DNA of 64,000 nt from Alphaproteobacteria bacterium (lineage in GTDB: Bacteria; Pseudomonadota; Alphaproteobacteria; G963923945): contig OZ240684.1 in NCBI GenBank assembly GCA_965199175.1, positions 1,058,337 to 1,122,336 on the forward strand. The letters run 5' to 3'. A program made the translations under genes and the position numbers. Positions 3,352-25,331 of this stretch are shown piece after piece. The notes under the pieces were generated by a model. The model saw only the letters and a program-made list of their open reading frames with translations. It ran no database searches and was not told the DNA's origin. Positions within the stretch are counted from its first letter, which is position 1. Every line of letters starts with the position of its first letter.

Positions 3352-3493
3352 TCTCCGGGTTCAGAAACCCGGGACTCATGATCTGAATATGCACCAACAC
3401 CATAGGGAGGGAATCAATCAACAAAACAAACAAAATATCAATAACAGCCCCAACCATCACCCGAAAACCAGAATTACAAGGAAAGGAAATATC

Positions 3494-9308: not shown

Positions 9309-9542
9309 ATGTCTGAAAATGATGGGACCAAATGCTCCGGGAATATTGTGGGGTTTCCACAGTCACGCACCCGGATTGGACCTTTGCGTCCAGCAAAAGA
9401 CCTTGGTTTATCAAGGTTGTCGCGCCAAGTTGGGTCACATGGAAAAGCCGCTCAAGGTCATTGGTGCAGTCACTGCGAAGGCATTTGGTACAGCTATTTC
9501 CCGGAGTCCGAATGTCCCGTTTGTGGCAACCGGCATGGGTGA
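9309..9542 (+). CDS. Small hypothetical zinc-ribbon protein (C-terminal CxxC...CPxCG, rubredoxin-like)
   Basis: 77-aa ORF with WCSHC...CPVCGN. Three overlapping frames are open here, so coding status is uncertain. Confidence 0.3.
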   Translation: MSENDGTKCSGNIVGFPQSRTRIGPLRPAKDLGLSRLSRQVGSHGKAAQGHWCSHCEGIWYSYFPESECPVCGNRHG

Positions 9543-9672: not shown

Positions 9673-9689
9673 TGGCATTGTTTTTGCTT
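9673..9689 (+). promoter_or_regulatory. Sigma-54 (-24/-12) promoter upstream of hydrogenase small subunit
   Basis: TGGCATtgtttTTGCTT has GG and GC separated by exactly 10 nt and lies ~140 bp upstream of the hupS start. Two 16-bp direct repeats (aagttagcagacagaa) sit between it and the RBS. Confidence 0.6.
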
Positions 9690-9829: not shown

Positions 9830-10792
9830 ATGGCTAATTTATTATGGCTCCAGGGCGGGGCCTGCTCTGGAAACACAATGTCGTTTCTGAATGCCGAGGA
9901 ACCCAGTGCCTGCGATCTTGTCACCGATTTCGGGATCAATGTTCTTTGGCAGCCGTCACTCGGCCTGGAACTCGGAGACGATGTTAAAGCGATACTGCAA
10001 AAATGTATTTCCGGTGATATCCAGCTGGATATTTTCGTTTTTGAAGGGACGGTTATTGACGCCCCCAACGGGACCGGCGAATGGAACCGGTTTTGTGGTC
10101 GGGCAATGAAAGAATGGGTCAAAGAACTTTCAGCAGCGGCTCAATTTGTTGTTGCTATTGGAGACTGTGCTACTTGGGGCGGTATTCCGGCAACCGCGCC
10201 CAATCCTTCGGATTCCAGGGGTCTGCAATTCCTGAAACGCGAGAAAGGTGGTGCCCTTGGGGAAGGGTTCACATCCAAAGCCGGCCTTCCGGTCATCAAT
10301 ATTCCGGGCTGCCCGGCTCACCCCGATTGGGTCACCCAAATTCTGGTGGCGGTTGCGACCGGACGGGCCGGAGACCTGACCCTTGATGAATTCCAGAGGC
10401 CAAAGACATTTTTCTCAAGTTTCACGCAAACTGGTTGTACTCGAAACATGCATTTTGCTTATAAAGTCTCCTCGACAGCGTTTGGCCAGCGTAAAGGCTG
10501 CCTGTTCTATGACCTTGGTTGCCGTGGGCCGATGACTCATAGCCCATGCAACCGGATTCTCTGGAACCGTCAGTCATCGAAAACTCGCGCCGGTATGCCT
10601 TGTCTGGGTTGCACGGAACCTGAGTTCCCGTTTTTTGATTTAGCACCTGGCACAGTCTTTAAAACTCAGACTGTGATGGGCGTACCCAAAGATCTGCCGA
10701 CAGGCGTGGAAAAAACTGGCTATGTAAAATTGACTGCCGCAGCCAAGGGTGCTGCCCCAGCCTGGGCTGAAAAAGACATTTTCGTCGTCTGA
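9830..10792 (+). CDS. hupS: [NiFe]-hydrogenase small subunit, no Tat signal peptide (group 2a-like HupS)
   Basis: Begins directly MANLLWLQGGACSGN. It has the conserved Cys ligands of the proximal, medial and distal FeS clusters. At 320 aa it matches cyanobacterial-type HupS length. RBS GGAGGAAAAAGA precedes the ATG. Confidence 0.9.
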   Translation: MANLLWLQGGACSGNTMSFLNAEEPSACDLVTDFGINVLWQPSLGLELGDDVKAILQKCISGDIQLDIFVFEGTVIDAPNGTGEWNRFCGRAMKEWVKELSAAAQFVVAIGDCATWGGIPATAPNPSDSRGLQFLKREKGGALGEGFTSKAGLPVINIPGCPAHPDWVTQILVAVATGRAGDLTLDEFQRPKTFFSSFTQTGCTRNMHFAYKVSSTAFGQRKGCLFYDLGCRGPMTHSPCNRILWNRQSSKTRAGMPCLGCTEPEFPFFDLAPGTVFKTQTVMGVPKDLPTGVEKTGYVKLTAAAKGAAPAWAEKDIFVV

Positions 10793-10841: not shown

Positions 10842-12437
10842 ATGTCAGCAGCAGTTCAAACTCTTGATATTTCTCCTGTCGGGCGCGTTGAAGGCGACCT
10901 TGACGTTCGTGTCGATATTTCGGATGGCGTTGTAACCAATGCCTGGACAAATGCGGAAATGTTCCGCGGCTTTGAAGTCATCTTGAAAGACAAAGACCCC
11001 CAGGCTGGCCTGGTCGTCACGCCCCGCGCCTGTGGCATCTGTGGTGCGTCGCATCTGACATGTGCTGCCTGGGCGTTGGATACAGCCTGGAGCACGACTG
11101 TCCCAAGAAATGCCATTTTGGCCCGCAACCTTGGTCAGATTGTCGAATCGCTTCAGTCTTTGCCCAGGCATCATTACGGCTTGTTCATGATTGATTACAC
11201 GAACAAAAATTACGCCAATTCGGTTTTTTTCGAAGAAGCCGTCAAGCGCTATGCGCCGTTTACCGGTACTTCCTACGAAGCTGGCGTGACGATTTCCGGC
11301 AGACCGGTTGAGATTTATGCTCTGCTCGGTGGGCAGTGGCCGCACTCATCTTACATGGTGCCAGGTGGCGTGATGTGTGCGCCGACTTTGACGGATGTGA
11401 CCCGGGCCTGGTCGATCCTTGAACACTTTCGACGTAACTGGATTGAACCATTATGGCTTGGATGTTCGATGGAGCGGTATGAAAGCATTCAGACATTAGA
11501 AGATTTTGAGGCATGGCTTGATGAACGTCCGGAACATGCGCGTTCAGACCTCGGCCTTTATTGGCGAATGTCCAAAGATATCGGTCTGGATCAATACGGC
11601 AAAGGCCATGGCAAATTCATCACCTGGGGTTATCTGCCCCATGAGGACAAATATCAAAACCCAACCATTGATGCACGCAGCGGCGCGGTCATCATGAAGG
11701 CCGGGGTATATGATGGTGCTTCTGACAGCTTCCAACCGATGGAACAGTCGTTGGCCCGGGAAGATATGATCCATTCCTGGTACGATGAAGGCAATGATAT
11801 TCACCCTTTTGACCGCACAACCAATCCGATTATGAAGAATGAGATTGATCCGGATGGAAAATATTCCTGGTGCACTTCGGTTCGCCACACTGAAAACGGT
11901 CGCCTTGAGGCGGGTCCACTTGCGCGTCGCCTGGTTTCTGGAGGACCGGGTCAGGATTTCCAGCATTCGGACGGCCTGATCCTGGATATGTATCGGAAGA
12001 TGGGTGGTGCTTCGATTATGCTGCGCCATTTCGCACGGATGCATGAACTGTGTATTCTCTACCGCGAAGCTGAGCGTATTCTGCGTGAATTCAAGCTCAA
12101 TGACGAATGGTATATCAAACCAACCGAGAAAGATGGGCGTGGTTGGGGTGCTACGGAGGCAATTCGTGGTGCCCTCTGCCACTGGATTGATGTTGAAGGC
12201 GGTAAGATCAAGAACTATCAGATCATCGCGCCGACCACCTGGAATGTTGGTCCTCGCGCTGAGAACGGCGAACGGGGACCGATCGAAGAGGCACTCATTG
12301 GGACGCCGATTGCCAACTCTTCGGATCCGGTCGAAGTCGGCCATGTGTGTCGGTCCTATGACAGCTGTTTGGTCTGCACCGTCCATGCTCATGATGGCAA
12401 GACAGGCGAAGAGCTTGCGCGGTTTCGTACGGCGTAA
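10842..12437 (+). CDS. hupL: [NiFe]-hydrogenase large subunit with C-terminal extension
   Basis: N-terminal RACGICGASH and C-terminal DSCLVCTVH motifs ligate the Ni-Fe site. About 16 residues follow the final His, which is a substrate for endopeptidase cleavage. 531 aa. Confidence 0.9.
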   Translation: MSAAVQTLDISPVGRVEGDLDVRVDISDGVVTNAWTNAEMFRGFEVILKDKDPQAGLVVTPRACGICGASHLTCAAWALDTAWSTTVPRNAILARNLGQIVESLQSLPRHHYGLFMIDYTNKNYANSVFFEEAVKRYAPFTGTSYEAGVTISGRPVEIYALLGGQWPHSSYMVPGGVMCAPTLTDVTRAWSILEHFRRNWIEPLWLGCSMERYESIQTLEDFEAWLDERPEHARSDLGLYWRMSKDIGLDQYGKGHGKFITWGYLPHEDKYQNPTIDARSGAVIMKAGVYDGASDSFQPMEQSLAREDMIHSWYDEGNDIHPFDRTTNPIMKNEIDPDGKYSWCTSVRHTENGRLEAGPLARRLVSGGPGQDFQHSDGLILDMYRKMGGASIMLRHFARMHELCILYREAERILREFKLNDEWYIKPTEKDGRGWGATEAIRGALCHWIDVEGGKIKNYQIIAPTTWNVGPRAENGERGPIEEALIGTPIANSSDPVEVGHVCRSYDSCLVCTVHAHDGKTGEELARFRTA

Positions 12438-12507: not shown

Positions 12508-12897
12508 GTGGTGGCTTCGATGGTTGGTGATATTTCTGTTGCGGCGGAGTCTTCGGCTTATCGGCAACGTTACGGGGTTTTGCCTTCCGAGGCCGACCAC
12601 GCAACCCTCATGAAGATGATTGAGGATTTATTTAAGGAGGGTCTGGAGACTCAGATTGAGCCATTTCCGAAAACTGACCGGGAATTTGCGGCGATTCTTG
12701 ATGATCTGCGGATGCTTACGCCAGACCAGCTTCGGGAAAAACTGGTGCTTTCCGGATGGCTTCTCAAGCCCCATGGTGAAGATCAGATGCGTTGTCAGGA
12801 ATGCATGTATTTTCTTGTCCATCGTCGCTGGTGCGATCTTCCGGAGTTGAATTTGCCTGCGGAACCGGAATGGTGGTGCAGATTGTGGAGAATTTAG
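12508..12897 (+). CDS. Hypothetical protein, paralog 1, conserved C-terminal 4-Cys motif (hydrogenase-cluster associated)
   Basis: C-terminus QECMYFLVHRRWCDLPELNLPAEPEWWCRLWRI. Paralogous to the next gene. Confidence 0.5.
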   Translation: MVASMVGDISVAAESSAYRQRYGVLPSEADHATLMKMIEDLFKEGLETQIEPFPKTDREFAAILDDLRMLTPDQLREKLVLSGWLLKPHGEDQMRCQECMYFLVHRRWCDLPELNLPAEPEWWCRLWRI

Positions 12898-12907
12898 GAG
12901 AGAGGAA

Positions 12908-13240
12908 GTGTCTGACCAAGCGTCAAGTCCTGAAGACGATGCGTTGCGCGACCATATCGCGGAGACATTGTCTTCGGGGATAGAAACCGAAGTCTGGCCA
13001 CGCGCCGAAACTTCGGAGATGGTTGAGAATATTGTCAAGCGCTTACAAACCGAAGCCAGAGACGACCTGGACAAGAAGCTGATCATCGGCGGTTTCACCG
13101 ACCACATCATCGAAGCCGAAGGATTGGAACAACCCTGTGAGACTTGTATGTATTACTTGGTGCATCGGAAATTTTGCGAATTACCGGAGTTGATGTTGCC
13201 AGTCGAACCGCATTGGTCTTGCAGACTTTGGCGCATTTGA
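12908..13240 (+). CDS. Hypothetical protein, paralog 2, conserved C-terminal 4-Cys motif
   Basis: C-terminus CETCMYYLVHRKFCELPELMLPVEPHWSCRLWRI aligns residue-for-residue with the previous ORF. GTG start. Confidence 0.5.
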   Translation: MSDQASSPEDDALRDHIAETLSSGIETEVWPRAETSEMVENIVKRLQTEARDDLDKKLIIGGFTDHIIEAEGLEQPCETCMYYLVHRKFCELPELMLPVEPHWSCRLWRI

Positions 13241-13716
13241 ATCCGGCGACAGTCATCATCGGTTGCGGCAACCCGAACCGAAGCGATGATGGAGTCGGCC
13301 CCTATGTCGTTTCCTTGCTTCGTGATCGGGATCTTGGTGATCATGTCTCGCTTTATGATGGCGGGACCGATGGTATGGGTGTCATGTACCGGCTGCGGGG
13401 CTTTGAGCGTCTGGTCATCATTGACGCCCGCATGCCTCAGGGGACTCCGGGCGCATTATATGAAGTCCCCGGAGACGTTCTGGAAACGCGTCCGCCACAA
13501 AGTCTCAATCTTCATGATTTCAGATGGGATCATGCTCTTTATGTCGGCCGCCAAATATATGGCACGGCGTTTCCGGATGATGTATCGGTGTTTTTAATTG
13601 AAGCAGCCAATCTTGATCTGGGATTGGAGATCAGCCCACACATTCAGGCGACGGCCTTGAAAGTTGCAGCGCAGATTGAGCATATGGTGACCGCGCGTGA
13701 TGCGGCGGCTATTTAG
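13237..13716 (+). CDS. hupD: Hydrogenase maturation endopeptidase (HybD/HupD family)
   Basis: Motif VIIGCGNPNRSDDGVGPYVV matches the GxGNxxxxDDGxG signature. The proposed TTG start overlaps the upstream stop. An ATG at 13144 in the track would overlap the previous gene by ~100 nt. Confidence 0.75.
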   Translation: MNPATVIIGCGNPNRSDDGVGPYVVSLLRDRDLGDHVSLYDGGTDGMGVMYRLRGFERLVIIDARMPQGTPGALYEVPGDVLETRPPQSLNLHDFRWDHALYVGRQIYGTAFPDDVSVFLIEAANLDLGLEISPHIQATALKVAAQIEHMVTARDAAAI

Positions 13717-13719
13717 GGA

Positions 13720-14031
13720 GTGGCGATGGCGGTGCGTATTGGCGTCCGGGATGGGTCTGTGTATCTCAATCGGCAGACCGTTGAGACGTATTTCCGGCAT
13801 ATTGACGCTGTAATCATTTTGATCCGTGACCAACAGTTGCAGATTCTGCCGGTTCGGCAGATGGCTGCGGGGGGGTGTTTGCTAAAAGTCCGTAATGCGG
13901 TTGGGGACCGGGTGGCGAACAGCCCGGATGTCTTCGCCGAGCACGGGCTTTCGGCTTGGCGTGATGATGATATTGAGGCAGTTTGGTCGGCGACTCTCGG
14001 TGCTCTTGTTGCAGAGATATCCGCATACTAA
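13720..14031 (+). CDS. Hypothetical protein (hydrogenase cluster)
   Basis: 103-aa ORF. RBS GGGAG lies 6 nt upstream of the ATG, immediately after hupD. Confidence 0.35.
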   Translation: MAMAVRIGVRDGSVYLNRQTVETYFRHIDAVIILIRDQQLQILPVRQMAAGGCLLKVRNAVGDRVANSPDVFAEHGLSAWRDDDIEAVWSATLGALVAEISAY

Positions 14032-14132
14032 GTTTACATATTGAAAAACGACTAGACATAATTCGTATAAACGGGTTTACTTTCCTGAGCGTTCATTGTT
14101 AGCGGATCGAAATCCGTTTACGGGAGGAGAGT

Positions 14133-15122
14133 ATGGTCGCGCGCAGCCGTACCGAAGATGAGGTGAATGCGGCCTTAAAGACGGTCGAAGGAAGCGGCGC
14201 ATCGACGCAGGAAAAAGCCGAGATGCTTATGGAAATCGCCATGGGCCTCCAACAAAAGCCCAAAGCTCCGGGTGATCTTCATGCTGCGGTCACTCTCTAT
14301 AAAAGGAGTCTGGAGCAAGCCAGAGACGCAGATTCGCTGCTTCAGGCACGTATTCGTGCGCGCATGGCCACTGCTATGATGGCCATACCTGGCGATACGA
14401 CGCATTTTCTGGAAAGCGCCCGGGGCGAATTGCAGGACGCCCTGGAGATATTACAAACCGAAGGCCTTGATGCAGAAATCGCAGAAGCCGAAATGAATTT
14501 GGGCCTGGTCTTGCAAAACCTTGCAGAAGTTGGCCAGGGCCGCATTCAAGATGCCATATCGGCCTATCAACGTGCCTTAAGGGTCTTTGATAAAGCCAGT
14601 CATCCTGTAGAATTCGCCATTCTGCAAAATAACATCGCAACTGCTTTCCTTTCGATTCCTTTCACTCAGGAGAGTGGTAAGATGCGGGAGGCTCTGGCCG
14701 TGCAGGCATTTGAAGAGGGTTTGAAAGTGGTCAATCTGATTGACCACCCCCGTGAATACGCCATGTTACAGAATAATCTTGGCAACGCTCTTCAGTACGC
14801 TTCGTCAAGCCATCGGGTTGAAAATGGTTTTCGGGCACTGGAGGCTTATGACGAAGCCTTGAAAGTGAGAACATCCCGCGATATGCCGGATGAATATGCC
14901 AACACCATCGCCAATAAGGCAAATTGCCTGGTCAACCTACCTGATGACCCAGAAAACCCTGACACCGGCAATCAGCATCACTTGTCAATAGCCCAGACTC
15001 TCTACAAGGAAGCGCATACGATTTTCGAGAATACCGGAGCACTCGACAAAGCGGCAATGGTGGCCGAAGCCCTGGCGAACCTATCTTCCGAAACCCGTTT
15101 CGGCCAACCCATCGTTCATTGA
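14133..15122 (+). CDS. TPR-like repeat protein (hydrogenase cluster)
   Basis: 329 aa, helical, with repeated A/L/Y-rich ~34-aa units (ALxxYxxAL patterns). Confidence 0.55.
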   Translation: MVARSRTEDEVNAALKTVEGSGASTQEKAEMLMEIAMGLQQKPKAPGDLHAAVTLYKRSLEQARDADSLLQARIRARMATAMMAIPGDTTHFLESARGELQDALEILQTEGLDAEIAEAEMNLGLVLQNLAEVGQGRIQDAISAYQRALRVFDKASHPVEFAILQNNIATAFLSIPFTQESGKMREALAVQAFEEGLKVVNLIDHPREYAMLQNNLGNALQYASSSHRVENGFRALEAYDEALKVRTSRDMPDEYANTIANKANCLVNLPDDPENPDTGNQHHLSIAQTLYKEAHTIFENTGALDKAAMVAEALANLSSETRFGQPIVH

Positions 15123-15346
15123 AGAAAAAAGCCACAGAAGGAGACCTGGCAATGGAACCTCTCATATTCATCCTGGCATTGGTGCTCGGGGTTGCTGCAT
15201 CTATCGGTGCCGGCGTGTTATCGGGTCTTTGGATCGGCAAAGACGCTCTTGGCGGCGAACTTGCCGCCTTTATGGGCGGGCTTTACGGCCTCATGTCCGG
15301 CATCGTCGGCGTCAGCGCCGGTTTGGCCGCTCTATTACTGGTTTAA
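15119..15346 (+). CDS. Small membrane protein (2 predicted TM helices)
   Basis: 75 aa with Gly/Ala-rich hydrophobic segments. Overlaps the upstream stop. Confidence 0.4.
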   Translation: MKKKATEGDLAMEPLIFILALVLGVAASIGAGVLSGLWIGKDALGGELAAFMGGLYGLMSGIVGVSAGLAALLLV

Positions 15347-15357
15347 GGGGGAGTCGG

Positions 15358-15579
15358 ATGTTGAGTATAGCACTGAATTCAGCAAAATTGTTCTTCGCGG
15401 GAAAACTCTTCCAGGATAACAAGAAAGTCTTGCGTCAATTTGCCATTGGTGCCGGGGCTGGGGGAATTGCGACTGTTATCGTTGCTCAATTCACGCCGCT
15501 GTGGCTCGCCGCGATGGCTGGCGGTGCTGTTTGCGGCTTTCTTCAACCAATTTTGTTTAAAGATCTGAAATACGCGTGA
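15358..15579 (+). CDS. Small membrane protein (2 predicted TM helices)
   Basis: ATG follows GGGGGAG. 73 aa with two hydrophobic stretches. Confidence 0.4.
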   Translation: MLSIALNSAKLFFAGKLFQDNKKVLRQFAIGAGAGGIATVIVAQFTPLWLAAMAGGAVCGFLQPILFKDLKYA

Positions 15580-15583
15580 TCCG

Positions 15584-16459
15584 ATGTCTGATGGTCCCGC
15601 AGCGCAGGAAGGCCGCTCGCTTGATGATCTCCTGAAAGATCTATCGGCTCTTGAAGCCCTGGCGAACGGATGGGAGAGTGCTGAACGCAACGGTGCTCAG
15701 GCCCGTGCCGAGGCCGTTGATGCTCTGAATGCGGAGGCTTTCCGTCGACTGATCAGAGTTCTCCGGGATACACCGGGCATGGAAAGTGCCTTACGTAGCG
15801 CTGCTGGTGACGAAGTTGTTTATGCGGTCTTGCGCCGTCATGGAATTCTAAAACCATCGCTTTTTGAGCGCGTTGACACAGCCCTCGACAGCGTACGTCC
15901 CATGCTGGTCAATCATGGTGGAAATGCCGAACTGGTCGCCGTCGATGGTCACTGTGCCACCATCCGGTTTCTCGGCAACTGTGATGGCTGCCCGGCCTCC
16001 GCCCTGACATTCTACGCAGGAGTAAAAAAAGCGATTCAAGACCAGGTTCCGGAAATTAGCGAGATCAAGCAAGCTAAAGGACTGGGGGGAGGCAGTGGAG
16101 GCGACAGTCAAACGACCCATTTCATATCACCATTTGCTACCTATCAGAGTGAAGGCTGGAGCTATGCCTGTGGCCTGCATGAGCTTGCCGATGGTGCTAC
16201 CACTATCCTGGATATCGAAGAACACTCAATTTTGCTGTCCCGCTTCGGTGATCGGATAACATGTTTTGAAAATGCTTGCGCGCATATGGGAATGGCGATG
16301 GATGGCGGCGAAATCAGCGATGGTTTGATCACCTGTCCTCATCATGAATTCAGGTACTCCCTGGAAACCGGAGAATGTCTGACCGCCCCGGAGGTCCAGC
16401 TGCAACCCCATGGCGTTCGCGTTGTCAGCGATATGGTCGAGGTACGGTTGACGCAATGA
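15584..16459 (+). CDS. NifU-like plus Rieske [2Fe-2S] fusion protein (mycobacterial HucE/HhyE-like hydrogenase-associated FeS protein)
   Basis: NifU C-terminal-type segment LVNHGGNAELVAVDGHCATIRFLGNCDGCPAS, followed by Rieske motifs CAH...CPHH. Confidence 0.7.
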   Translation: MSDGPAAQEGRSLDDLLKDLSALEALANGWESAERNGAQARAEAVDALNAEAFRRLIRVLRDTPGMESALRSAAGDEVVYAVLRRHGILKPSLFERVDTALDSVRPMLVNHGGNAELVAVDGHCATIRFLGNCDGCPASALTFYAGVKKAIQDQVPEISEIKQAKGLGGGSGGDSQTTHFISPFATYQSEGWSYACGLHELADGATTILDIEEHSILLSRFGDRITCFENACAHMGMAMDGGEISDGLITCPHHEFRYSLETGECLTAPEVQLQPHGVRVVSDMVEVRLTQ

Positions 16460-17640
16460 AGGCAATGATGCTCTCCTCCTTCCAGCCGCTCAAGGCACCA
16501 GGAACTGTGAAAGCAGGCCGATTATTGCTGGATGAAGGCGGACCGGAAGTCATCCTTGGCTGGCGGCAGGGGGAATTGGCGGCTCCTCTTACACCAAGTC
16601 CCTCGACTATGTTCGGACCGCGGGGAGTATGCCTGCACCCTGATGGCTCATTTTGGGCTTCTGATACCGGACATCATCGCCTTCTGGGATGGCACACAAC
16701 ACCCTATCATGATAATGCGGCAGCCGATATCGTCATCGGCCAGCCGGATTTCCTGAGAGAAGGGCGCAATGCCAAGGCAGAGCCCAGTGCCGCAACACTG
16801 AACATGCCGACCGGCGTGGCGGCCTGGGGCAATGGTCTGGCGGTTGCCGATGCTTGGAATCACCGGATTTTGTTGTGGAAAACAACTCCCCGGCAAAGCG
16901 GTCAGGCCGCCGATATCATTTTGGGACAGGAGACCAATATTTCAATCGACGCCAACCGGGGTGCCGACCAACCGACCAAAGCCAGCCTGCACTGGCCTTG
17001 CGGGGTCTCGGTCATTGATGGAAAATTGGTTGTTTGCGACACCGGAAACCGTCGGGTTCTGATCTGGGATCATCCCAAAAAAACCGGGCAACCGGCTGAT
17101 TTGGTTCTGGGTCAATATGATTTTACGACCCGGGACGAGAATGCCGGTGGTCCTGTTTCGGCAATGTCTATGCGGTGGCCACATATGGCCACCTCCTGGT
17201 CTGGGCGTTTTGTTGTAGCTGATGCGGGCAATAACCGAATCATGGTCTGGAACCACATGCCCAGTCACAACGGTGCGTCATCAACATTCATTCTTGGCCA
17301 ACATGATGCGGTTGGATGCGACCATAATCTTGCTGATTATTATCCATGTGCGGCCTCGGTCAACATGCCTTATGCGGCTATCGCCGCAGGGCAAAGGCTG
17401 GTGGTCGCCGATACGGCGAATTCGCGGTTGATTGGATGGTCCAGGGCGGTCACAGGAAGTGATGCTGACCGGCTGACCGGTCAACCGGATTTTGCGGCCA
17501 AAGGGGATAATCGTTGGGGTATGGCGGAACGCGATAGCCTATGCTGGCCTTATGGCCTCTCGGTATTGGACGATTGGATTGCAATCGCAGATAGCGGGAA
17601 CAACCGCGTGCTTTTGTGGCGGGTCGCCGATGCCGGGTGA
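16456..17640 (+). CDS. NHL-repeat beta-propeller protein (hydrogenase-associated)
   Basis: The ATG overlaps the upstream stop (ATGA). At least six repeats of the DxGNxRIxxW/D type (ADAWNHRILLW, CDTGNRRVLIWD, ADAGNNRIMVWN, ADTANSRLIGW, ADSGNNRVLLW). Confidence 0.7.
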   Translation: MKAMMLSSFQPLKAPGTVKAGRLLLDEGGPEVILGWRQGELAAPLTPSPSTMFGPRGVCLHPDGSFWASDTGHHRLLGWHTTPYHDNAAADIVIGQPDFLREGRNAKAEPSAATLNMPTGVAAWGNGLAVADAWNHRILLWKTTPRQSGQAADIILGQETNISIDANRGADQPTKASLHWPCGVSVIDGKLVVCDTGNRRVLIWDHPKKTGQPADLVLGQYDFTTRDENAGGPVSAMSMRWPHMATSWSGRFVVADAGNNRIMVWNHMPSHNGASSTFILGQHDAVGCDHNLADYYPCAASVNMPYAAIAAGQRLVVADTANSRLIGWSRAVTGSDADRLTGQPDFAAKGDNRWGMAERDSLCWPYGLSVLDDWIAIADSGNNRVLLWRVADAG

Positions 17641-19996
17641 ACGTCATAAAATCCGTGGCCAGGTTCAAGGGGTCGGGTTTCGGCCAACCGTTTGGCGGGT
17701 TGCGCGTGAACTTGGCTTAACCGGCAATGTTCGCAATACCGGTGACAGCGTGGAGGTGCTTCTATGGGGAAAAAACAGCGATAGTTTCGTCGATCAATTA
17801 CGCCTCCAACTCCCGCCTCTGGCCAAAATCGATGACTGGGAGCGTGCACCTGTGAGCGGACCAGCACCCGAAACCTTCTCGATTGAGGCATCTTTGTCCG
17901 ATCATGTAAAAACTTCCGTGACCCCGGATACCAATATATGCGCCGACTGCCTGGCAGAGATCCGTGACCCCTTTGAAAGACGCTACCGCTATCCATTCGC
18001 GAATTGCACCAATTGCGGACCACGATTTTCAATCATTGAGAGTGTTCCTTACGACCGGGACGGGACAACCATGCGGTCATTTGACCTTTGTCCCGATTGC
18101 GCGGTTGAATACCGGGACCCGGCTGATCGGCGATTTCACGCTCAACCGGTCGCTTGCCATGCTTGCGGACCGCGCGCCTGGTTGGAAAAACTTGGTGGCG
18201 GTACCGTCAATTCCGAATCTTTTTCGATGATGGATGATGTTGATGCTGCAGGTGGTGCATTGATGCGCGGATTCATCCTCGCCATCAAAGGTATTGGCGG
18301 ATTTCATCTGGCCTGTGACGCCACCAAGCCAGACGTCGTGAATGCTTTAAGAGAGCGCAAGAATCGAAAGGGCAAAGCGTTTGCGCTGATGGCCCGTGAT
18401 CTCGATGTTATCAGTCAATATGCGGCGGTATCAGATGAGGAAGCAGCCCTCCTGAGAGGACCCGAAGCACCGATTGTTCTTCTAAGGGCCCAGGGTAAAC
18501 CATTACCTGAGGCGATCGCGCCGGGCCTTGATCGACTCGGCTTTATGCTGCCTCACACGCCTCTGCATCATTTGCTGCTGAGCCGGATGAAACGCCCGGT
18601 AGTCATGACCTCGGGAAACCTGTCCGGACAACCGCAATGCACCCGGAATACCGATGCTCGTAGGCGTTTGACAGGAATCGCTGACTTCGCACTCATGCAT
18701 AACCGCACCATCGCAAACCGCATTGATGATAGTGTGGTTCGGGTCGATATGGGGCGAATGCGGATGTTACGGCGGGCTCGGGGTTATACACCCAAGGCAA
18801 TCCCTCTGCCCAAAGGCTTTTCCCAAAACCATAAGATTTTAGCTCTTGGTGCCGAACTCAAAAACGCTTTCAGCCTTGTCAAAGAGGGTCAGGCAATCCT
18901 CAGCCAACATATGGGAGATATGGAAGACTTCTCCACCCAGGCCGATATCGACCACACTCTTGCTCTCTATCAATCCTTGTATCGGTTTTCGCCGGATCTG
19001 ATCGCCGTTGACAGCCATCCGGAATATCTTTCGACCAAGCGCGGCTACGCAATGGCCCGGGACTTGCCCATCATTGAGGTACAGCATCATCATGCTCATA
19101 TCGCCAGCTGCCTGGTTGAAAATGGCTACGCCCTCAATGCACCGCCGGTATTGGGAATCGCTTTAGATGGTCTTGGTTTGGGTGATGATGGAACCTTTTG
19201 GGGCGGCGAATTTCTGATCGCTGATTACCAGGGGTACCAACGCGCTGGCTGTTTGAAACCGGTCGCTCTGCCAGGGGGCGATTCGGCTGTGCGCGAACCT
19301 TGGCGGAATGCCTATGCGCATCTGATGGCCGAAATGGGCTGGGCGGAATTTGAAATGAATTTTTCCGATCTCGAACTGTATCATAAGCTCAACGCCACAC
19401 CGCGCAAAACTCTTGATGCGATGATATTGTCGAATACCAATGCGCCGCTATCATCATCCTGTGGCCGCCTGTTCGATGCTGCGGCTACGATGATCGGTAT
19501 TGCCTGGGAGCGCCAAGACTATGAAGGCCAGGCAGCCATGCAGTTTGAAGCCATCCTGGATGTTGATGCGCTCAATGAACCTGATGACCATGCCTATCCA
19601 TTCGCGATCCCGCTGTTGGGTGGTGCCGGCCTGCCCTATATTGAGCCGCTGGCAGTATGGCGGGCAATGCTGGGTGATTTAATTTTGGGGACACCCGTCG
19701 GCGTTATGTCGGCCCGGTTTCATCGCGGTCTTGCCAAAGCCATTGCGGCAATGACAAACCGGATCACGTCGAAAACTGAAATTGATACAGTCGTCCTCAC
19801 CGGCGGTTGTTTCCAGAATGCCACTTTGTTCAGGCTGGTGAGCACATATTTAAAAGATATAGGCTTGACGCTTTTCAGCCATTCGAAAATCCCCGCCAAT
19901 GATGGGGGACTTGCTCTCGGCCAGGCCGCAATCGCTTTGGCCCTCAACTCAAAAGGAGACAACCATGTGCCTCGGGATACCCGGACAGATCATTGA
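17630..19996 (+). CDS. hypF: Carbamoyltransferase HypF
   Basis: Acylphosphatase N-terminus (VQGVGFRP), two Zn-finger CxxC pairs, YrdC and Kae1-like domains. Internal start at 17630; the ORF track extends to 17492. Confidence 0.9.
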   Translation: MPGERHKIRGQVQGVGFRPTVWRVARELGLTGNVRNTGDSVEVLLWGKNSDSFVDQLRLQLPPLAKIDDWERAPVSGPAPETFSIEASLSDHVKTSVTPDTNICADCLAEIRDPFERRYRYPFANCTNCGPRFSIIESVPYDRDGTTMRSFDLCPDCAVEYRDPADRRFHAQPVACHACGPRAWLEKLGGGTVNSESFSMMDDVDAAGGALMRGFILAIKGIGGFHLACDATKPDVVNALRERKNRKGKAFALMARDLDVISQYAAVSDEEAALLRGPEAPIVLLRAQGKPLPEAIAPGLDRLGFMLPHTPLHHLLLSRMKRPVVMTSGNLSGQPQCTRNTDARRRLTGIADFALMHNRTIANRIDDSVVRVDMGRMRMLRRARGYTPKAIPLPKGFSQNHKILALGAELKNAFSLVKEGQAILSQHMGDMEDFSTQADIDHTLALYQSLYRFSPDLIAVDSHPEYLSTKRGYAMARDLPIIEVQHHHAHIASCLVENGYALNAPPVLGIALDGLGLGDDGTFWGGEFLIADYQGYQRAGCLKPVALPGGDSAVREPWRNAYAHLMAEMGWAEFEMNFSDLELYHKLNATPRKTLDAMILSNTNAPLSSSCGRLFDAAATMIGIAWERQDYEGQAAMQFEAILDVDALNEPDDHAYPFAIPLLGGAGLPYIEPLAVWRAMLGDLILGTPVGVMSARFHRGLAKAIAAMTNRITSKTEIDTVVLTGGCFQNATLFRLVSTYLKDIGLTLFSHSKIPANDGGLALGQAAIALALNSKGDNHVPRDTRTDH

Positions 19997-20258
19997 AATC
20001 TCTGATCCAGCCAAGAAACTCGCGCTGGTGGACGTATCTGGCGTTCGCCGTGAAGTGAATGTTGCCTGCATCGCCGAAAATAATCCGATTGACGACCTGA
20101 TTGGTGCCTGGGCGTTGATCCATGTCGGGTTTGCGATGTCTCGCATCAATGAGGAGGAAGCCGCCAAGACTCTGGAAGTCCTCAGGATGCTGGGCGAAGC
20201 GCAAGAAGAAATCGAAGCGATGCGCCAAAGCCAGCAGATGCTGGAGCAGACATCATGA
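19965..20258 (+). CDS. hypC: Hydrogenase maturation factor HypC
   Basis: N-terminal MCLGIPGQI signature; 97 aa. Confidence 0.85.
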   Translation: MCLGIPGQIIEISDPAKKLALVDVSGVRREVNVACIAENNPIDDLIGAWALIHVGFAMSRINEEEAAKTLEVLRMLGEAQEEIEAMRQSQQMLEQTS

Positions 20259-21394
20259 AATATGCCGACGAGTTCCGTGATCCCGTTGCGGCCAGAGGCG
20301 TCCTGGCAGCCATCGAAAACGTTGTCACCGAGCTGGGTGCAACAGCCGAGAAACCGATCCATATTATGGAGATTTGCGGCGGCCACACCCATGCAATCTT
20401 CCGTTATGGACTCGATAAACTGACGCCGCCGGGGCTGGAATTCATTCATGGTCCTGGATGCCCGGTTTGCGTACTTCCGATGCGTCGGGTCGATGAATGC
20501 GTCGAACTGGCTGAGCAGCATCAGGTCATTTTTACAACATTCGGTGACGCGATGCGGGTTCCGGGAACTCGAAAATCACTGATGCAAGCCAAGGCGGAGG
20601 GATGTGACATCCGCATGGTCTACTCGCCTCTGGATGCCCTTGAATTGGCCCGCCGCCATCGGGACCGGGAAGTCGTTTTCTTTGGTCTTGGGTTTGAGAC
20701 AACCACTCCATCAACCGCATTATCAATCCAGCAAGCGGCTTGTGAAAAGCTGGAGAATTTCACAATCTTCTGCAACCATGTGACGGTTCCACCGCCAATT
20801 AAGGCTTTGTTGGATGACCCACATATGATCCTCGACGGGTTTGTCGGTCCGGGCCATGTATCAATGGTGATCGGTGTCAGACCGTATGATTTTATTGCCC
20901 AGGAATACGGTAAACCGATTGTCGTAGCCGGGTTTGAGCCGCTGGATTTGTTGCAGTCAGTCTTGATGGTTTTAGAACAAATCCGTGATGGACGGGCTGA
21001 GGTCGAAAATCAATATTCCAGAGTGGTTCCAGATGAGGGCAACCCGGTCTCTGTCGCTGCTTGCGAAGATGTTTATGAACGTCGTGAAAGTTTTGAATGG
21101 CGGGGTTTGGGAGAGATTGACTTCTCTGGCCTGAAAATTCGCAAAAAATATGCGGCTTTTGACGCTGAGCGAAAATTCGCTATCGGCTATGGAACCAATC
21201 GCCAACCGACCAGGGAACCCGAAGGGTGCGCTTGCGGCGACGTGATGACGGGCCGGATTAAACCTCGGCAATGCCCACAGTTTGGCGGCGGCTGTACGCC
21301 GGAAACGCCTTTGGGTGCATTGATGGTTTCATCTGAAGGGGCGTGTGCGGCCTATTACCAATATGGTGGTGCTCAATTGGAAACCACGCAATGA
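20255..21394 (+). CDS. hypD: Hydrogenase maturation factor HypD
   Basis: Motifs CGGHTH, GPGCPVC and FETT; 379 aa. Confidence 0.9.
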   Translation: MKYADEFRDPVAARGVLAAIENVVTELGATAEKPIHIMEICGGHTHAIFRYGLDKLTPPGLEFIHGPGCPVCVLPMRRVDECVELAEQHQVIFTTFGDAMRVPGTRKSLMQAKAEGCDIRMVYSPLDALELARRHRDREVVFFGLGFETTTPSTALSIQQAACEKLENFTIFCNHVTVPPPIKALLDDPHMILDGFVGPGHVSMVIGVRPYDFIAQEYGKPIVVAGFEPLDLLQSVLMVLEQIRDGRAEVENQYSRVVPDEGNPVSVAACEDVYERRESFEWRGLGEIDFSGLKIRKKYAAFDAERKFAIGYGTNRQPTREPEGCACGDVMTGRIKPRQCPQFGGGCTPETPLGALMVSSEGACAAYYQYGGAQLETTQ

Positions 21395-22434
21395 CAACGC
21401 TTGCGCCATCGCGACGGCTCCGGGCCGATACGGTGACACTGGCTCACGGCGGTGGCGGTAAGGCAATGCGGGATCTTATCACGGATGTCTTCCTGTCTGT
21501 CTTCACGCCCACTGATCTGGAGGATCAAGCCCGCCTGCAATCAGATGCCCTGACCGAAACCGGAACCCAGCTGGCGTTCACGACCGATGGATTCGTTGTC
21601 GACCCCATTGAATTTCCGGGTGGAGATATCGGCAGAATTGCCGTCTGCGGAACAGTTAATGATCTGGCTGTCGGCGGTGCCCGTCCCCTCTGGCTGTCGG
21701 CCGGCTTTATTATTGAGGAGGGATGCGACGTCGCCTTGCTGCGCCGCATTGCCCACTCAATGCAGACGGCGGCGACAGAAGCAGATGTACGTATTGTCAC
21801 AGGTGACACCAAGGTGGTCGGAAAAGGATCGGCGGATGGCGTTTTCGTAACCACCTCCGGCATTGGCGTTATTTCTCCGGGTCGGTCTCTGAGTGCCGCC
21901 AATATACGGCCAGGGGATATCGCCATCGTCAATGGCGTTCTCGGTGATCATGGTGCTGCTATTCTGGCCGCACGCGGTGACATGGCTCTGTCTGCGACAA
22001 TCAAAAGCGATTGCCAACCACTGGCCGCGCTCATGAATGCGGTGCTTGAAGCCGCTCCCGGGGTCCGCGCAGCCAGAGATGCTACACGAGGCGGACTTGC
22101 TTCGGCGTTGAACGAAATTGCCGAGGCGGCAGGCTACGGCATAGAAATCGACGAAACTGATTTGCCTTTGAGGACTGAAGTTAAAGGGGTTTGCGAAATT
22201 CTTGGGTTGGATCCACTTTATCTGGCTAATGAGGGGACTCTAGTTCTATTCGTTCCGCCTGAACAAGAAGATGCCGCACTGGCTGCAATGCACAGTCTAC
22301 CGGCTGGTCGGCACGCTGTCTCTATTGGACACGTCGTTCAGTCCCATCCCGGTGTCGTTGTTATGCGTACAACATTTGGAAGTGCGCGTATCATTGACAT
22401 GCTGGTCGGTGAGCAACTGCCTAGAATCTGCTGA
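21391..22434 (+). CDS. hypE: Carbamoyl dehydratase HypE
   Basis: AIR-synthase-like fold. The ATG overlaps the hypD stop. Confidence 0.9.
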   Translation: MTTLAPSRRLRADTVTLAHGGGGKAMRDLITDVFLSVFTPTDLEDQARLQSDALTETGTQLAFTTDGFVVDPIEFPGGDIGRIAVCGTVNDLAVGGARPLWLSAGFIIEEGCDVALLRRIAHSMQTAATEADVRIVTGDTKVVGKGSADGVFVTTSGIGVISPGRSLSAANIRPGDIAIVNGVLGDHGAAILAARGDMALSATIKSDCQPLAALMNAVLEAAPGVRAARDATRGGLASALNEIAEAAGYGIEIDETDLPLRTEVKGVCEILGLDPLYLANEGTLVLFVPPEQEDAALAAMHSLPAGRHAVSIGHVVQSHPGVVVMRTTFGSARIIDMLVGEQLPRIC

Positions 22435-22441
22435 GATATAT

Positions 22442-23158
22442 ATGATTAGCTTTCTGTTTCTCGGATTTCTCATTGGTATGAGCCATGCAGTTGAGGCTGA
22501 TCACCTGGCCGCAATTGGGGCTTTGGCTGCTCGTGAAGCTGGCGGGAGACGATCCCTGGTCTTGAGGGGTGTTGCTTGGGGGATGGGTCATACAATCACC
22601 CTGTTTGCTTTGTGTTTTCTGGTTCTGATCTTCGGAATCGCCATCACCGACGAAGCAGCAGCAGCACTGGAATTCGGGGTTGGAGTCATGTTGGTGCTTC
22701 TGGGGTCTGATGTATTGTGGCGGATATATAAAAGACGTATTCATTTCCATCCGCACACCCATGATGGTGGTCAGCTGCATTTGCATGCGCATTCTCACCC
22801 TAAAACCGATACTCCTCATGAGGTTGATCACCACCACCATACCCATTCCGGTTTTTCACTTAAGGCCATGATGGTTGGCCTCATGCATGGAGCAGCTGGC
22901 GCGGCAGCACTTCTCGCGCTCGCTGTCGCCACCGCCAAAGATCCACTGGTCGCGCTGGCCTATACACTTGTCTTCGGGGTGGGATCCATCATTGGTATGG
23001 CACTGTTATCATTCGTTGCTGCGTGGCCGCTTCAAAGTGTCGAAGGACACGCCCATTTCATCTATCGGTTCTTGATAGCACTGGCTGGATGTGCCGCCAT
23101 TTTTATTGGCATTGATAGTATGTTCAATACCGGTGCGCTTGCATGGAGAGTGTTCTGA
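22442..23158 (+). CDS. Nickel transporter-like membrane protein (HupE/UreJ-NicO superfamily) with His-rich loop
   Basis: Multiple TM helices; the HAVEADH motif; loop HFHPHTHDGGQLHLHAHSHPKTDTPHEVDHHHHTHSGF. Confidence 0.65.
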   Translation: MISFLFLGFLIGMSHAVEADHLAAIGALAAREAGGRRSLVLRGVAWGMGHTITLFALCFLVLIFGIAITDEAAAALEFGVGVMLVLLGSDVLWRIYKRRIHFHPHTHDGGQLHLHAHSHPKTDTPHEVDHHHHTHSGFSLKAMMVGLMHGAAGAAALLALAVATAKDPLVALAYTLVFGVGSIIGMALLSFVAAWPLQSVEGHAHFIYRFLIALAGCAAIFIGIDSMFNTGALAWRVF

Positions 23159-23400
23159 TGCATGAACTTGGCCTCAGCAGAAATATTGTCGCCATCGTTT
23201 CGGAGCATGCGGCAGGTCGGCGGGTCAAACGCGTACGGATCGCCATTGGTCCGCTTGCATGCGTTGAACGCGCTGCCTTGGCGTTTTGCTGGCGTTTAGT
23301 CGTGGAAGGAACCGATCTTGCCATCGCCGAATTGGTCTTCATTGAAGCCGAAGGCGATACTTTTCTGATTAAAGACTACGAACTGGAGGAGGCAGCTTGA
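23158..23400 (+). CDS. hypA: HypA-like nickel metallochaperone, N-terminal domain only (zinc-finger module absent)
   Basis: Starts with the MHE Ni-binding motif (MHELGLS). At 80 aa it ends before the expected CxxC...CxxC motifs, and hypB starts immediately after. Confidence 0.6.
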   Translation: MHELGLSRNIVAIVSEHAAGRRVKRVRIAIGPLACVERAALAFCWRLVVEGTDLAIAELVFIEAEGDTFLIKDYELEEAA

Positions 23401-24215
23401 TGTGCGGAACATGCGGATGTTCAGATCCTAAGAATGACGTAGCTTTAATTGATCCTGAAACCGGAGAGAAAATGATTATGCGCCAGGGCAGTATTCTTGG
23501 ACAGGATCATCCGTCTCACAGCCATGGCGGTGATGATCCTCCGCATATCCATGGCCCGGACGGTGAGACTGTCAGTCTTGAGACAGCTGTGCTCGCTAAA
23601 AATGAAGCCATTGCGGCGCGTAATCGCGATTGGTTCGAGAGTAATAGCGTATTGGCGTTGAATCTTGTCAGTTCGCCGGGAGCCGGAAAAACAACCCTTC
23701 TTGAACGCACAATCAGGGAATTAAACCCTACTGTTGAGATTGCCGTGATCGAAGGTGATCAAATGACGACAAACGACGCCTATCGTATCCGGGCCGCCGG
23801 AGCCAAGGCAATCCAGATCAATACCGGGGCCGGATGTCATCTCGAAGCGGATATGATTGCGCAAGCGGTTACCCGTCTTGATCTTGCTCCCGGGGCTATT
23901 TTGATGATTGAAAATGTCGGGAATCTGGTTTGTCCAGCGATGTTTGATCTTGGAGAACATATGAAGGTCGCTGTTGTTTCGACAACTGAGGGCGAAGATA
24001 AACCACTGAAATACCCCCATATGTTCCGCGTTTGTGATCTTGTTGTGATCAACAAGATTGACCTGGTGCCTCATGTCGATTTCGATGAGACGCTGTGTCG
24101 GGACAATATTGCAAAAGTCAATCCGCACTCAAAGATCATATCCTTATCAAGTAAATCCGGGCATGGTTTTACGGCATGGACAGATTGGCTGGGAAGACAA
24201 CAACGCCCAGATTAG
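23400..24215 (+). CDS. hypB: Hydrogenase nickel incorporation GTPase HypB
   Basis: N-terminal MCGTCGC high-affinity Ni site, His-rich stretch, P-loop GSPGAGKTT, and ENVGNLVCP. Confidence 0.9.
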   Translation: MCGTCGCSDPKNDVALIDPETGEKMIMRQGSILGQDHPSHSHGGDDPPHIHGPDGETVSLETAVLAKNEAIAARNRDWFESNSVLALNLVSSPGAGKTTLLERTIRELNPTVEIAVIEGDQMTTNDAYRIRAAGAKAIQINTGAGCHLEADMIAQAVTRLDLAPGAILMIENVGNLVCPAMFDLGEHMKVAVVSTTEGEDKPLKYPHMFRVCDLVVINKIDLVPHVDFDETLCRDNIAKVNPHSKIISLSSKSGHGFTAWTDWLGRQQRPD

Positions 24216-25190: not shown

Positions 25191-25331
25191 GTATCATTGA
25201 CATTTCAGGGTAGAATAACCGGATATTTGTTGGGTTTTTTTCTATCATCCTGCTAAATAAGGCTCTCTTTTTGTTTTTATTGATCCTTCTTATCTTTATT
25301 GATCCTTTTTGATTTCTTGTTCTTTTTGATA

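Follow-up and report, generated by a model that had tools for sequence, protein, structure and literature searches.

The 64,000-nucleotide window analysed here (the whole stretch of DNA, from an uncultured alphaproteobacterium) encodes, between 14133 and 17640, a NifU-Rieske protein and an NHL-repeat protein close to the genes of a [NiFe]-hydrogenase. Does such a set belong in a proteobacterium, and what does its Fe-S protein do for the enzyme? The initial annotation saw an actinobacterial-style accessory set in an unusual host. We find that the segment almost certainly holds the conserved accessory genes (TPR, two small membrane proteins, HucE and NHL) of an alphaproteobacterial group 2a (Huc-type) hydrogenase cluster. 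The presence of NifU-Rieske and NHL genes beside this enzyme is ordinary, because they are usual, published companions of the oxygen-tolerant Huc-type hydrogenase in many phyla including Proteobacteria. Taken as a whole, the locus is best explained by Huc-type accessory genes among which HucE probably serves maturation or assembly.

The 291-aa HucE orthologue (15584–16459, + strand) comprises a helical N-terminal domain, a NifU-C-like CxxC domain, a Gly-rich linker and a Rieske-type [2Fe-2S] ferredoxin domain. Pfam placed NifU (PF01106, E 3.5e-19) at residues 97–161 and Rieske (PF00355, E 5.9e-14) at residues 192–271, and both motifs read from this ORF in the initial annotation are present. 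The NifU-like motif is C133-D-G-C136, with both cysteines invariant across the alignments, and the middle domain matched NfuA and NifU as well as plant and bacterial Nfu structures. The Rieske motif was defined as a C-terminal CxH-(x15-18)-CxxH pattern; the window protein carries it as C232-A-H234...C251-P-H-H254, with 16 residues from H234 to C251 (CAHMGMAMDGGEISDGLITCPHH). Rieske proteins of the bc1 type have an additional cysteine pair that forms a disulphide, and the loops read from the window sequence (CAHMGM and CPHHEF) are without this pair. The AF2 model (pLDDT 87) contains three domains, with helices within residues 13–85, and fold comparison likened the C-terminal domain to Rieske ferredoxins (TM-scores of 0.7–0.8 relative to the target). 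HucE has no membrane segment.

Comparison with M. smegmatis HucE gave full-length homology (28% identity, residues 6–290 against 3–294, E 1e-36, 120 bits), well beyond generic Rieske motifs. In contrast, the match to M. smegmatis HhyE covered residues 14–253 only (28% identity, E 4e-23, 84 bits). Identity to HucE of Pseudaestuariivita atlantica reached 69%. The window protein fell within the HucE clade, beside alphaproteobacterial HucE, in a neighbor-joining tree of 13 HucE and 4 HhyE sequences (small, distance-based and with no bootstrap support). It lacks the C-terminal CxxC...CxxC of the HhyE type, which is present in 4/4 HhyE sequences examined. A NifU-Rieske architecture, at first ascribed to both families, thus applies to HucE but not to HhyE (PMC6883350).

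The TPR, mp1, mp2, hucE and NHL genes all lie on the + strand together with hucS, hucL and hypF, as originally described. The first (14133–15122, +) encodes a 329-aa TPR-like helical-repeat protein (Pfam TPR_12, E 1.9e-07; 31.6 bits, where the cutoff is 30.1). It has tblastn matches in 76/80 related loci, and is homologous to the 416-aa protein directly upstream of HucE in a mycobacterial locus, L081 (27% over 216 aa, E 2e-21). The 394-aa NHL-repeat protein (16456–17640, +; Pfam NHL, E 5.1e-26) likely starts at the ATG at 16456, overlapping the hucE stop, within a longest ORF of 16375–17640. Six repeats at regular intervals, whose D-x-[GAW]-[NH]-x-R-[ILV] cores fall at residues 70, 132, 195, 256, 319 and 379, agree with the six units that the initial annotation read as propeller blades. 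The protein is present in 79/80 related loci, and the NHL protein whose gene follows mycobacterial hucE matches it at 44% identity across 351 aa (E 3e-93).

Two small proteins are encoded between TPR and hucE, each behind a GGAG-type ribosome-binding site. The 64-aa mp1 (15152–15346, +) is a membrane protein that has a pair of hydrophobic segments (its highest 19-residue Kyte-Doolittle mean is 2.59), and the 73-aa mp2 (15358–15579, +) is moderately hydrophobic (maximum hydropathy 1.64). Homologues of both occur in 76/76 related loci having the TPR–HucE interval (jackhmmer for mp2), and tblastn recovered mp2 in 78/80 loci at a median identity of 60%. Neither has a match in the mycobacterial locus, and mp2 belongs to no Pfam family.

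The hydrogenase genes, hucS (9830–10792, +) and hucL (10842–12437, +), lie 3.1 kb upstream of hucE on the same strand. M. smegmatis Huc is the closest solved relative of both HucL (PDB 7UTD/7UUS, E 2e-181) and HucS (7UUR/7UTD, E 5e-157, in an end-to-end alignment), and HucS has no Tat signal peptide. Directly after hucL come two HiPIP-like cytoplasmic proteins, p129 and p110 (12508–13240), for which HiPIP is indicated by fold comparison alone. Membership of the HiPIP family, judged by four Cys ligands in the typical order, a terminal W-x-C-x-x-W and the fold, is tentative for these proteins. By sequence, they gave chance-level matches to solved structures (PHD fingers, E 0.3–5; designed helical repeats, E 2e-4 to 1e-2, without a significant stretch), to neither HucM nor HiPIP, and no Pfam match. 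A maturation protease (TIGR00072, E 5.5e-33) and the 103-aa protein p103 follow (13246–14031, +). The 265-aa mycobacterial protease has a C-terminal extension to which p103 is homologous (E 6e-10); a mycobacterial 90-aa protein was rejected as a counterpart of p103 for want of similarity.

HucM was sought by single-sequence tblastn with the HucM of L081, a 99%-identical HucE neighbourhood, which found no match at E < 1 across the whole window. HucM itself scores DUF1641 in Pfam; p129, p110, p103, mp1 and mp2 have neither this domain nor any other family. A very divergent HucM analogue may still be encoded in the window. Since no HucM was detected, another component may have to connect the enzyme to the quinone pool.

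Downstream, hypF (about 17630–19996), hypC, hypD, hypE, a NicO-like nickel permease gene, hypA and hypB, assigned by Pfam domains, occupy 17630–24215 on the + strand. This block is colinear in 63–76 of the 80 loci, with the NicO-like gene in 47/80. Its frames overlap or abut, and connect in this way to hucE and NHL. Consecutive genes overlap by 4 nt (hucE and NHL), 11 nt (NHL and hypF), 32 nt (hypF and hypC), 4 nt (hypC and hypD) and 4 nt (hypD and hypE). From this layout hucE is predicted to be translationally coupled to the hyp maturation genes and not to hucSL; overlap of this kind is a sign of co-expression, not of function.

The TPR gene is preceded by an intergenic gap (14032–14132, +) bearing TGYAAAC-N3-GTTTRCA, then GAAAA and TAGACA/TTGACA. 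This gap measures 85–130 bp (median 108) in 70 loci, nearly all of which carry the palindrome or a close variant; the left arm of the window copy is degenerate. With a sigma70-like match at 14033–14062, the gap motif may represent a putative operator plus internal promoter. Generic scans for terminators and promoters inside the cluster scored no higher than shuffled expectation. An RNA hairpin in the p103–TPR gap was rejected, because in several loci C stands opposite A in the two arms, a pattern suited to a Y/R-degenerate DNA half-site and not to base pairing. Upstream of hucS the window also has a gene for a sigma54 activator and a -24/-12 site, in agreement with the sigma54 regulation first suggested. 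Co-transcription of the TPR–HucE–NHL genes with hucSL is uncertain; the conserved gap of ~108 bp, with its palindrome and -35-like hexamer, precedes the TPR gene.

We favour a maturation or assembly mechanism for HucE, which we hold at about even confidence. HucE would be a soluble cytoplasmic Fe-S protein needed for producing active enzyme. Through its Nfu-type CxxC domain it would carry or hand over an Fe-S cluster, and its Rieske-type domain would give or take electrons while the small-subunit clusters assemble under oxygen. TPR and NHL would serve as scaffolds for protein binding, the TPR/HucE/NHL set would be produced together with HypFCDE, and HucE would form no obligatory link between H2 and quinone in the electron path. 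This role is suggested by the 4–32 nt overlaps that run from hucE through NHL to hypF, hypC, hypD and hypE, by the conserved, motif-bearing gap that separates the hucE–hyp block from the hucSL–protease genes, and by the NifU-C/Nfu domain, which is typical of Fe-S carrier proteins.

Published results point the same way. A requirement for HucE in hydrogenase activity has been shown only in M. smegmatis deletion mutants, where loss of hucE abolished activity, also when nitroblue tetrazolium was the acceptor, and the authors regarded an assembly role as compatible with their data (PMC6883350). Purified active Huc consists of HucS, HucL and HucM only, an 833 kDa oligomer without HucE, TPR or NHL proteins, and in air it reduces menaquinone analogues (PMC10017518). 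Atmospheric H2 oxidation has also been coupled to ATP synthesis by a reconstituted three-enzyme chain (PMC12318194). Counter-points to a maturation role are the Rieske-type domain, the failure to detect HucM and two arguments of Islam et al. 2019 for a relay, namely that HucE has co-evolved with hucSL and that no other acceptor subunit is known. A Rieske-type ferredoxin domain is a classic module for electron transfer.

Electron relay, from the distal cluster of HucS through the HucE Rieske centre to the quinone pool and perhaps with mp1/mp2 as anchor, is the rival that survives best, although we consider it rather doubtful. It was also the reading of the initial annotation, where it was not new. 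Islam et al. 2019 (PMC6883350) had argued for it from the conserved Fe-S motifs, essentiality, co-evolution with hucSL and absence of a cytochrome b subunit, and Kucera et al. 2020 (PMC7735108) had proposed it for Acidithiobacillus ferrooxidans. The Rieske ferredoxin fold with intact ligands is consistent with relay, as is the lack of detectable HucM/DUF1641 in the window. The position of mp1/mp2 directly upstream of hucE and their retention in all 76 loci also favour it, but both are missing from the mycobacterial cluster, where HucE is essential. HucE is itself without a membrane segment, and its predicted translational coupling is to the hyp genes. The relay idea is further weakened because purified Huc reduces menaquinone analogues without HucE, and nitroblue tetrazolium did not rescue the hucE deletion.

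Even so, electrons may pass from H2 to quinone by a route different from that of the solved mycobacterial enzyme, because HucM went undetected here, and the proteobacterial clade has HiPIP-like proteins and very small membrane proteins instead. We think it unlikely that quinone coupling in proteobacterial group 2a enzymes uses an uncharacterised module of the two HiPIP-like proteins (12508–13240) and mp1/mp2 (15152–15579), possibly with the HucE Rieske centre. If true, this module would be an alternative to the HucM quinone tube; for A. ferrooxidans a differing route was partly suggested in 2020.

TPR and NHL propellers are modules for protein-protein interaction. Together with HucE they might form a platform that assembles or stabilises the large hydrogenase oligomer, or senses O2 or redox state, with neither Fe-S delivery nor relay. 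Linkage of the TPR, HucE and NHL genes from Actinobacteria and Bacillota to Alphaproteobacteria is consistent with such a platform, and Islam et al. 2019 (PMC6883350) named a 'structural scaffold' as possible. We judge it improbable: the CxxC and Rieske ligands are invariant across phyla, which argues that the bound metal clusters are functionally required, and the purified 833-kDa oligomer includes none of the three proteins.

The role of the HucE, NHL and TPR proteins is a question that reaches beyond this window. About 65–76 of the 80 related genomes, which are nearly all alphaproteobacterial, have the cluster in colinear form, with Rhodobacterales, Sphingomonadales, Rhodospirillales and Hyphomicrobiales represented; this group 2a neighbourhood survey confirmed the co-occurrence of NifU-Rieske and NHL genes. 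Identity of HucE to most of these loci was 58–84%, with 84% the best among species-representative genomes, and the P. atlantica and Tistlia consotensis loci have a gene order identical to that of the window. The TPR–HucE–NHL order recurs in L081, and an annotated Parageobacillus cluster has a matching order (protease-hyp-TPR-hyp-NifU-NHL-HypCDE). Because the genome scan, made with a narrow HucE alignment, gave mostly Alphaproteobacteria, the extension to distant phyla draws on the literature plus one mycobacterial locus. Islam et al. 2019 (PMC6883350) recorded HucE/HhyE from 14 phyla, with full-length HucE in 12 Proteobacteria, and hucE and NHL genes are common hucL neighbours (Islam et al. 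2020). The supposedly unusual host was therefore a misreading, given that the hydrogenase itself is group 2a, the published range of HucE is this wide and colinear alphaproteobacterial clusters number in the dozens. Recent import of an actinobacterial module into a proteobacterial hydrogenase island, which a cluster G+C slightly above that of the immediate flanks (0.52–0.55 against 0.46–0.50) and the first study of this set in mycobacteria might suggest, is already contradicted and has next to no likelihood: other parts of the window have G+C of 0.55–0.58, HucE lies far from the actinobacterial branch of the tree and is much closer to its alphaproteobacterial relatives than to M. smegmatis, the whole cluster is colinear across four alphaproteobacterial orders, and a Proteobacteria-associated HucL radiation has been described (Islam et al. 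2020).

For genome annotation the locus is of little consequence, being another Huc-type cluster of the Alphaproteobacteria that has the accessory genes one would expect. The catalogued HucE proteins of P. atlantica, Sphingopyxis alaskensis, T. consotensis and Phreatobacter (PMC6883350 supplement) fall in the same clade and show no difference of substance; the window simply comes from a different, uncultured alphaproteobacterium. M. smegmatis HucE (MSMEG_2268; PMC6883350) shares the helical N-domain, NifU-like CxxC and Rieske CxH...CxxH. Its gene likewise sits between TPR and NHL genes, downstream of group 2a hucSL and the protease. The window differs in the two small membrane-protein genes preceding hucE, in the hypF gene directly following the accessory genes, and in its sigma54 activator, where mycobacterial huc has an AraC-type protein. 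Mycobacterial Huc (HucS-HucL-HucM) includes the HucM/DUF1641 scaffold and quinone-tube subunit that was not detected here, whereas the HiPIP-like and small membrane proteins are specific to the clade of the window.

The hup (group 2a) operon of A. ferrooxidans, a locus compared through its publication, shares a hupR-type regulator and a nifU/Rieske gene; it also has a putative HiPIP gene beside hupLS, where the window has two candidate HiPIP-like genes. Its HucE is only 40% identical to that of the window in the alignment. Kucera et al. 2020 (PMC7735108) put forward both the HiPIP and the NifU/Rieske protein of this operon as the electron link that had been lacking. HhyE (MSMEG_2718) has the helical N-domain and NifU-like CxxC domain in common with HucE, but ends in a rubredoxin-like CxxC...CxxC without Rieske ligands (PMC6883350 and the four sequences here), and goes with group 1h enzymes as HucE does with group 2a. 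The middle and C-terminal domains of HucE resemble, respectively, Nfu/NfuA carriers and the Rieske-type ferredoxins of oxygenase systems or NirD. Unlike these proteins, HucE is dedicated to a hydrogenase cluster, and it has both domains fused behind a helical domain that is found specifically in HucE and HhyE.

A single co-oriented hydrogenase cluster spans ~9.3 to 24.2 kb of the window on the + strand. Its gene assignments agree with Pfam and NCBIfam, and gene starts were our own choices wherever the longest ORF was clearly too long. The ORF of u77, a 77-aa Cys4 protein (9309–9542, +), is flanked by the sigma54 activator gene and by hucS, and was matched in 65 related loci by tblastn. Its C-terminal end, W-C-x-x-C...C-P-x-C-G, is a zinc-ribbon or rubredoxin-knuckle-like motif. 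The cluster continues on the same strand with hucS (9830–10792, +), hucL (10842–12437, +), the small paralogous proteins p129 (12508–12897, +) and p110 (12908–13240, +), a maturation protease (about 13246–13716, +) and the 103-aa p103 (13720–14031, +). p103 is in frame with the protease, with one stop codon and one further codon between them. The next block comprises a TPR protein (14133–15122, +), the small membrane proteins mp1 (15152–15346, +) and mp2 (15358–15579, +), the NifU-Rieske protein (15584–16459, +) and an NHL protein with six regularly spaced repeats (16456–17640, +), as described in the initial annotation and confirmed here by ORFs and domain matches. The genes hypF, hypC, hypD, hypE, a NicO-like permease, hypA and hypB complete the cluster up to 24215 (+).

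Membrane-like hydrophobic segments were found only in mp1 and mp2; by hydropathy, none was present in the NifU-Rieske, NHL, TPR, p129 or p110 proteins. The HucS N-terminus carries no Tat signal peptide. The NicO-like membrane protein between hypE and hypA (22436–23158, +) has His-rich loops, and its match to the NicO nickel transporter is weak (E 6e-06, just under the Pfam cutoff). Elsewhere in the window, a 90-nt tRNA-His call by ARAGORN (anticodon ATG; 26297–26386, +) falls wholly within the 3' end of a 363-aa ORF (25299–26390) and is probably false. ORFs of 762, 398 and 481 aa (1063–3351, 3389–4585 and 26538–27983, +) matched no Pfam family at E 1e-05.

By sequence comparison, the hydrogenase itself is assigned to the Huc type, group 2a. 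The nearest solved relatives of HucS and HucL are M. smegmatis Huc (PDB 7UTD, 7UUR and 7UUS), with E 2e-181 for HucL and E 5e-157 for HucS, the latter aligned from first residue to last. The remaining solved hydrogenases scored far more weakly (about 1e-61 and 1e-36). The 291-aa protein is likewise identified as a HucE orthologue. It is soluble and combines an Nfu-type CxxC domain (PF01106, residues 97–161, E 3.5e-19; C133-x-x-C136) with a Rieske-type ferredoxin domain (PF00355, residues 192–271, E 5.9e-14; C232-x-H234...C251-x-x-H254), separated by a disordered Gly-rich linker. Reference sequences were those in the supplementary data of Islam et al. 2019 (PMC6883350). Residues 6–290 of the 291-aa protein aligned with residues 3–294 of M. 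smegmatis HucE (28% identity, E 1e-36), a similarity that extends well beyond generic Rieske motifs. Identity to HucE of the alphaproteobacterium Pseudaestuariivita atlantica, catalogued in the same paper, reached 69%, and the protein fell with alphaproteobacterial HucE in a small neighbor-joining tree of 13 HucE and 4 HhyE. The proposed homology to both HucE and HhyE is thus correct for HucE, at full length, and wrong for HhyE, with which only the N-terminal region and NifU domain aligned (E 4e-23). HhyE had also been credited with the Rieske architecture, which is incorrect: CxH...CxxH occurs in 13/13 HucE and CxxC...CxxC in 4/4 HhyE, and the source paper likewise states that HhyE lacks it (PMC6883350).

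The distribution of relatives was surveyed next. A protein search with the window HucE gave 1438 clusters at 90% identity among 5878 scored candidates, and those with names were alphaproteobacterial. Two HucE peptide patterns, run against a single genome for each species, matched 290 genomes. The best 80 of these 290 were nearly all Alphaproteobacteria (Rhodobacterales, Sphingomonadales, Rhodospirillales, Kiloniellales and Hyphomicrobiales), and also included one Granulosicoccaceae and one Planctomycetaceae MAG. Colinearity was judged in these best 80 loci by tblastn with all cluster proteins, which matched NHL in 79, TPR in 76, hypF in 76, hucSL in 70 and hypCD in 68. Essentially all loci with enough flank shared the order activator, hucS, hucL, p129, p110, protease, p103, TPR, mp1, mp2, hucE, NHL, hypFCDE, hypA, hypB. 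Culturable species with this cluster include Sphingopyxis alaskensis, Tistlia consotensis and Roseovarius lutimaris. Both mp1 and mp2 were present in 76/76 loci holding the TPR–HucE interval, and the NicO-like gene lay between hypE and hypA in 47 of the 80.

The block extends to other phyla. A mycobacterial contig (L081) whose HucE is 99% identical to that of M. smegmatis carries, in order, an AraC regulator, HucM (DUF1641), HucS, HucL, a 265-aa protease, a 90-aa protein, a TPR-like protein, HucE and NHL. Its NHL and TPR proteins are 44% (E 3e-93) and 27% (E 2e-21) identical to those in the window. Parageobacillus thermoglucosidasius has protease, hypothetical, TPR, hypothetical, NifU family, NHL, HypC, HypD and HypE (PMC12976888). 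Published expression values for this cluster are near zero (0.01–0.04) for TPR and NHL, and the two genes in between, hypothetical and NifU-family, are up several-hundred-fold, which is odd for one predicted operon (PMC12976888). Together, the gene orders in the colinear loci, L081 and P. thermoglucosidasius indicate that the TPR–HucE–NHL block is ancient and conserved in group 2a clusters and is not peculiar to Actinobacteria. The literature agrees: HucE/HhyE-type proteins were reported in 14 phyla and 104 genera, full-length HucE was tabulated in 12 Proteobacteria with group 2a enzymes (PMC6883350), a HucL radiation associated with Proteobacteria was described by Islam et al., who also named hucE and NHL genes among the usual neighbors of hucL (PMC7784904), and HucE is an expected component in later genome papers. 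The initial annotation had wrongly considered this set unusual in a proteobacterial island. That apparent paradox disappears once the enzyme is placed in group 2a, since a group 2a accessory set then simply adjoins a group 2a enzyme.

The regulator upstream of hucS contains a sigma54-interaction domain and a Fis-type HTH, and a –24/–12-like site, TGGCATTGTTTTTGC, lies at 9673–9687 (+), 143 nt upstream of hucS. In 34/68 related loci, a site of this kind lay within 300 nt upstream of hucS (at 69–115 nt), compared to 0/68 control segments inside hucL. Further downstream, most genes are closely spaced or overlap (hucE>NHL –4, NHL>hypF –11, hypF>hypC –32, hypC>hypD –4, hypD>hypE –4). The exception is the 101-bp gap before the TPR gene (14032–14132, +), which measures 85–130 bp (median 108) in 70 loci. 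Conserved in this gap is a palindrome, TGYAAAC-N3-GTTTRCA, followed by GAAAA and then TAGACA/TTGACA; the left arm of the window's copy is degenerate. This motif resembles a transcription-factor binding site next to a –35 element, and a generic sigma70 scan also gave a match at 14033–14062. With C/A mismatches between its two arms, the palindrome is unlikely to act as an RNA hairpin. The gap is therefore a possible operator with an internal promoter, in which case a separate transcription unit may run from TPR to the hyp genes, possibly in addition to read-through.

The proposed function of HucE in the electron path is an already published hypothesis. Deletion of hucE in M. smegmatis abolished Huc activity, also in zymograms supplied with an artificial acceptor, and the authors left relay, assembly and scaffold roles all open (PMC6883350). 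Purified Huc comprises HucS, HucL and HucM only, holds menaquinone in an internal chamber and reduces menaquinone analogues in air (PMC10017518). ATP has been made from atmospheric H2 by a reconstituted three-enzyme chain (PMC12318194). These results, together with the tight coupling of hucE/NHL to hypFCDE, favor a role in maturation or assembly of the hydrogenase, which we regard as the best-supported reading at about even confidence. Electron relay by HucE is a more doubtful possibility. Its likelihood would be higher in the window's clade than in mycobacteria, given that HucM, the scaffold and quinone-tube subunit of mycobacterial Huc, was not detected: tblastn with HucM of L081 (4380–4949) found no match at E < 1 anywhere in the window, and Pfam scans of p129, p110, p103, mp1 and mp2 found no DUF1641. 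Even so, conservation of HucS extends to its C terminus. Invariance of the metal ligands makes a role purely as a scaffold less probable still.

HucE is co-inherited with group 2a enzymes. Beyond HucE, the window cluster differs from the mycobacterial one in several small proteins. The protease and p103 are two separate ORFs, whereas the mycobacterial Huc protease is one fused protein, whose C-terminal extension p103 matches (41% over 54 aa). p129, p110, mp1, mp2 and u77 had no counterpart in L081. p129 and p110 (39% identical) are members of a family comprising at least 779 clusters, all called hypothetical where named. Four cysteines are invariant in this family, as is a terminal W-x-C-x-L-W-R-I. 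In A. ferrooxidans, Kucera et al. 2020 noted a putative HiPIP adjoining hupLS and proposed the HiPIP or the NifU/Rieske protein as the missing electron link (PMC7735108). The clade-specific set of the HiPIP-like p129 and p110 and the small membrane proteins, in a cluster without detectable HucM, is the sole mildly novel angle here; most of it falls outside the original finding, and part had been foreseen in 2020. The window cluster is another instance of the already described Huc-type accessory set.
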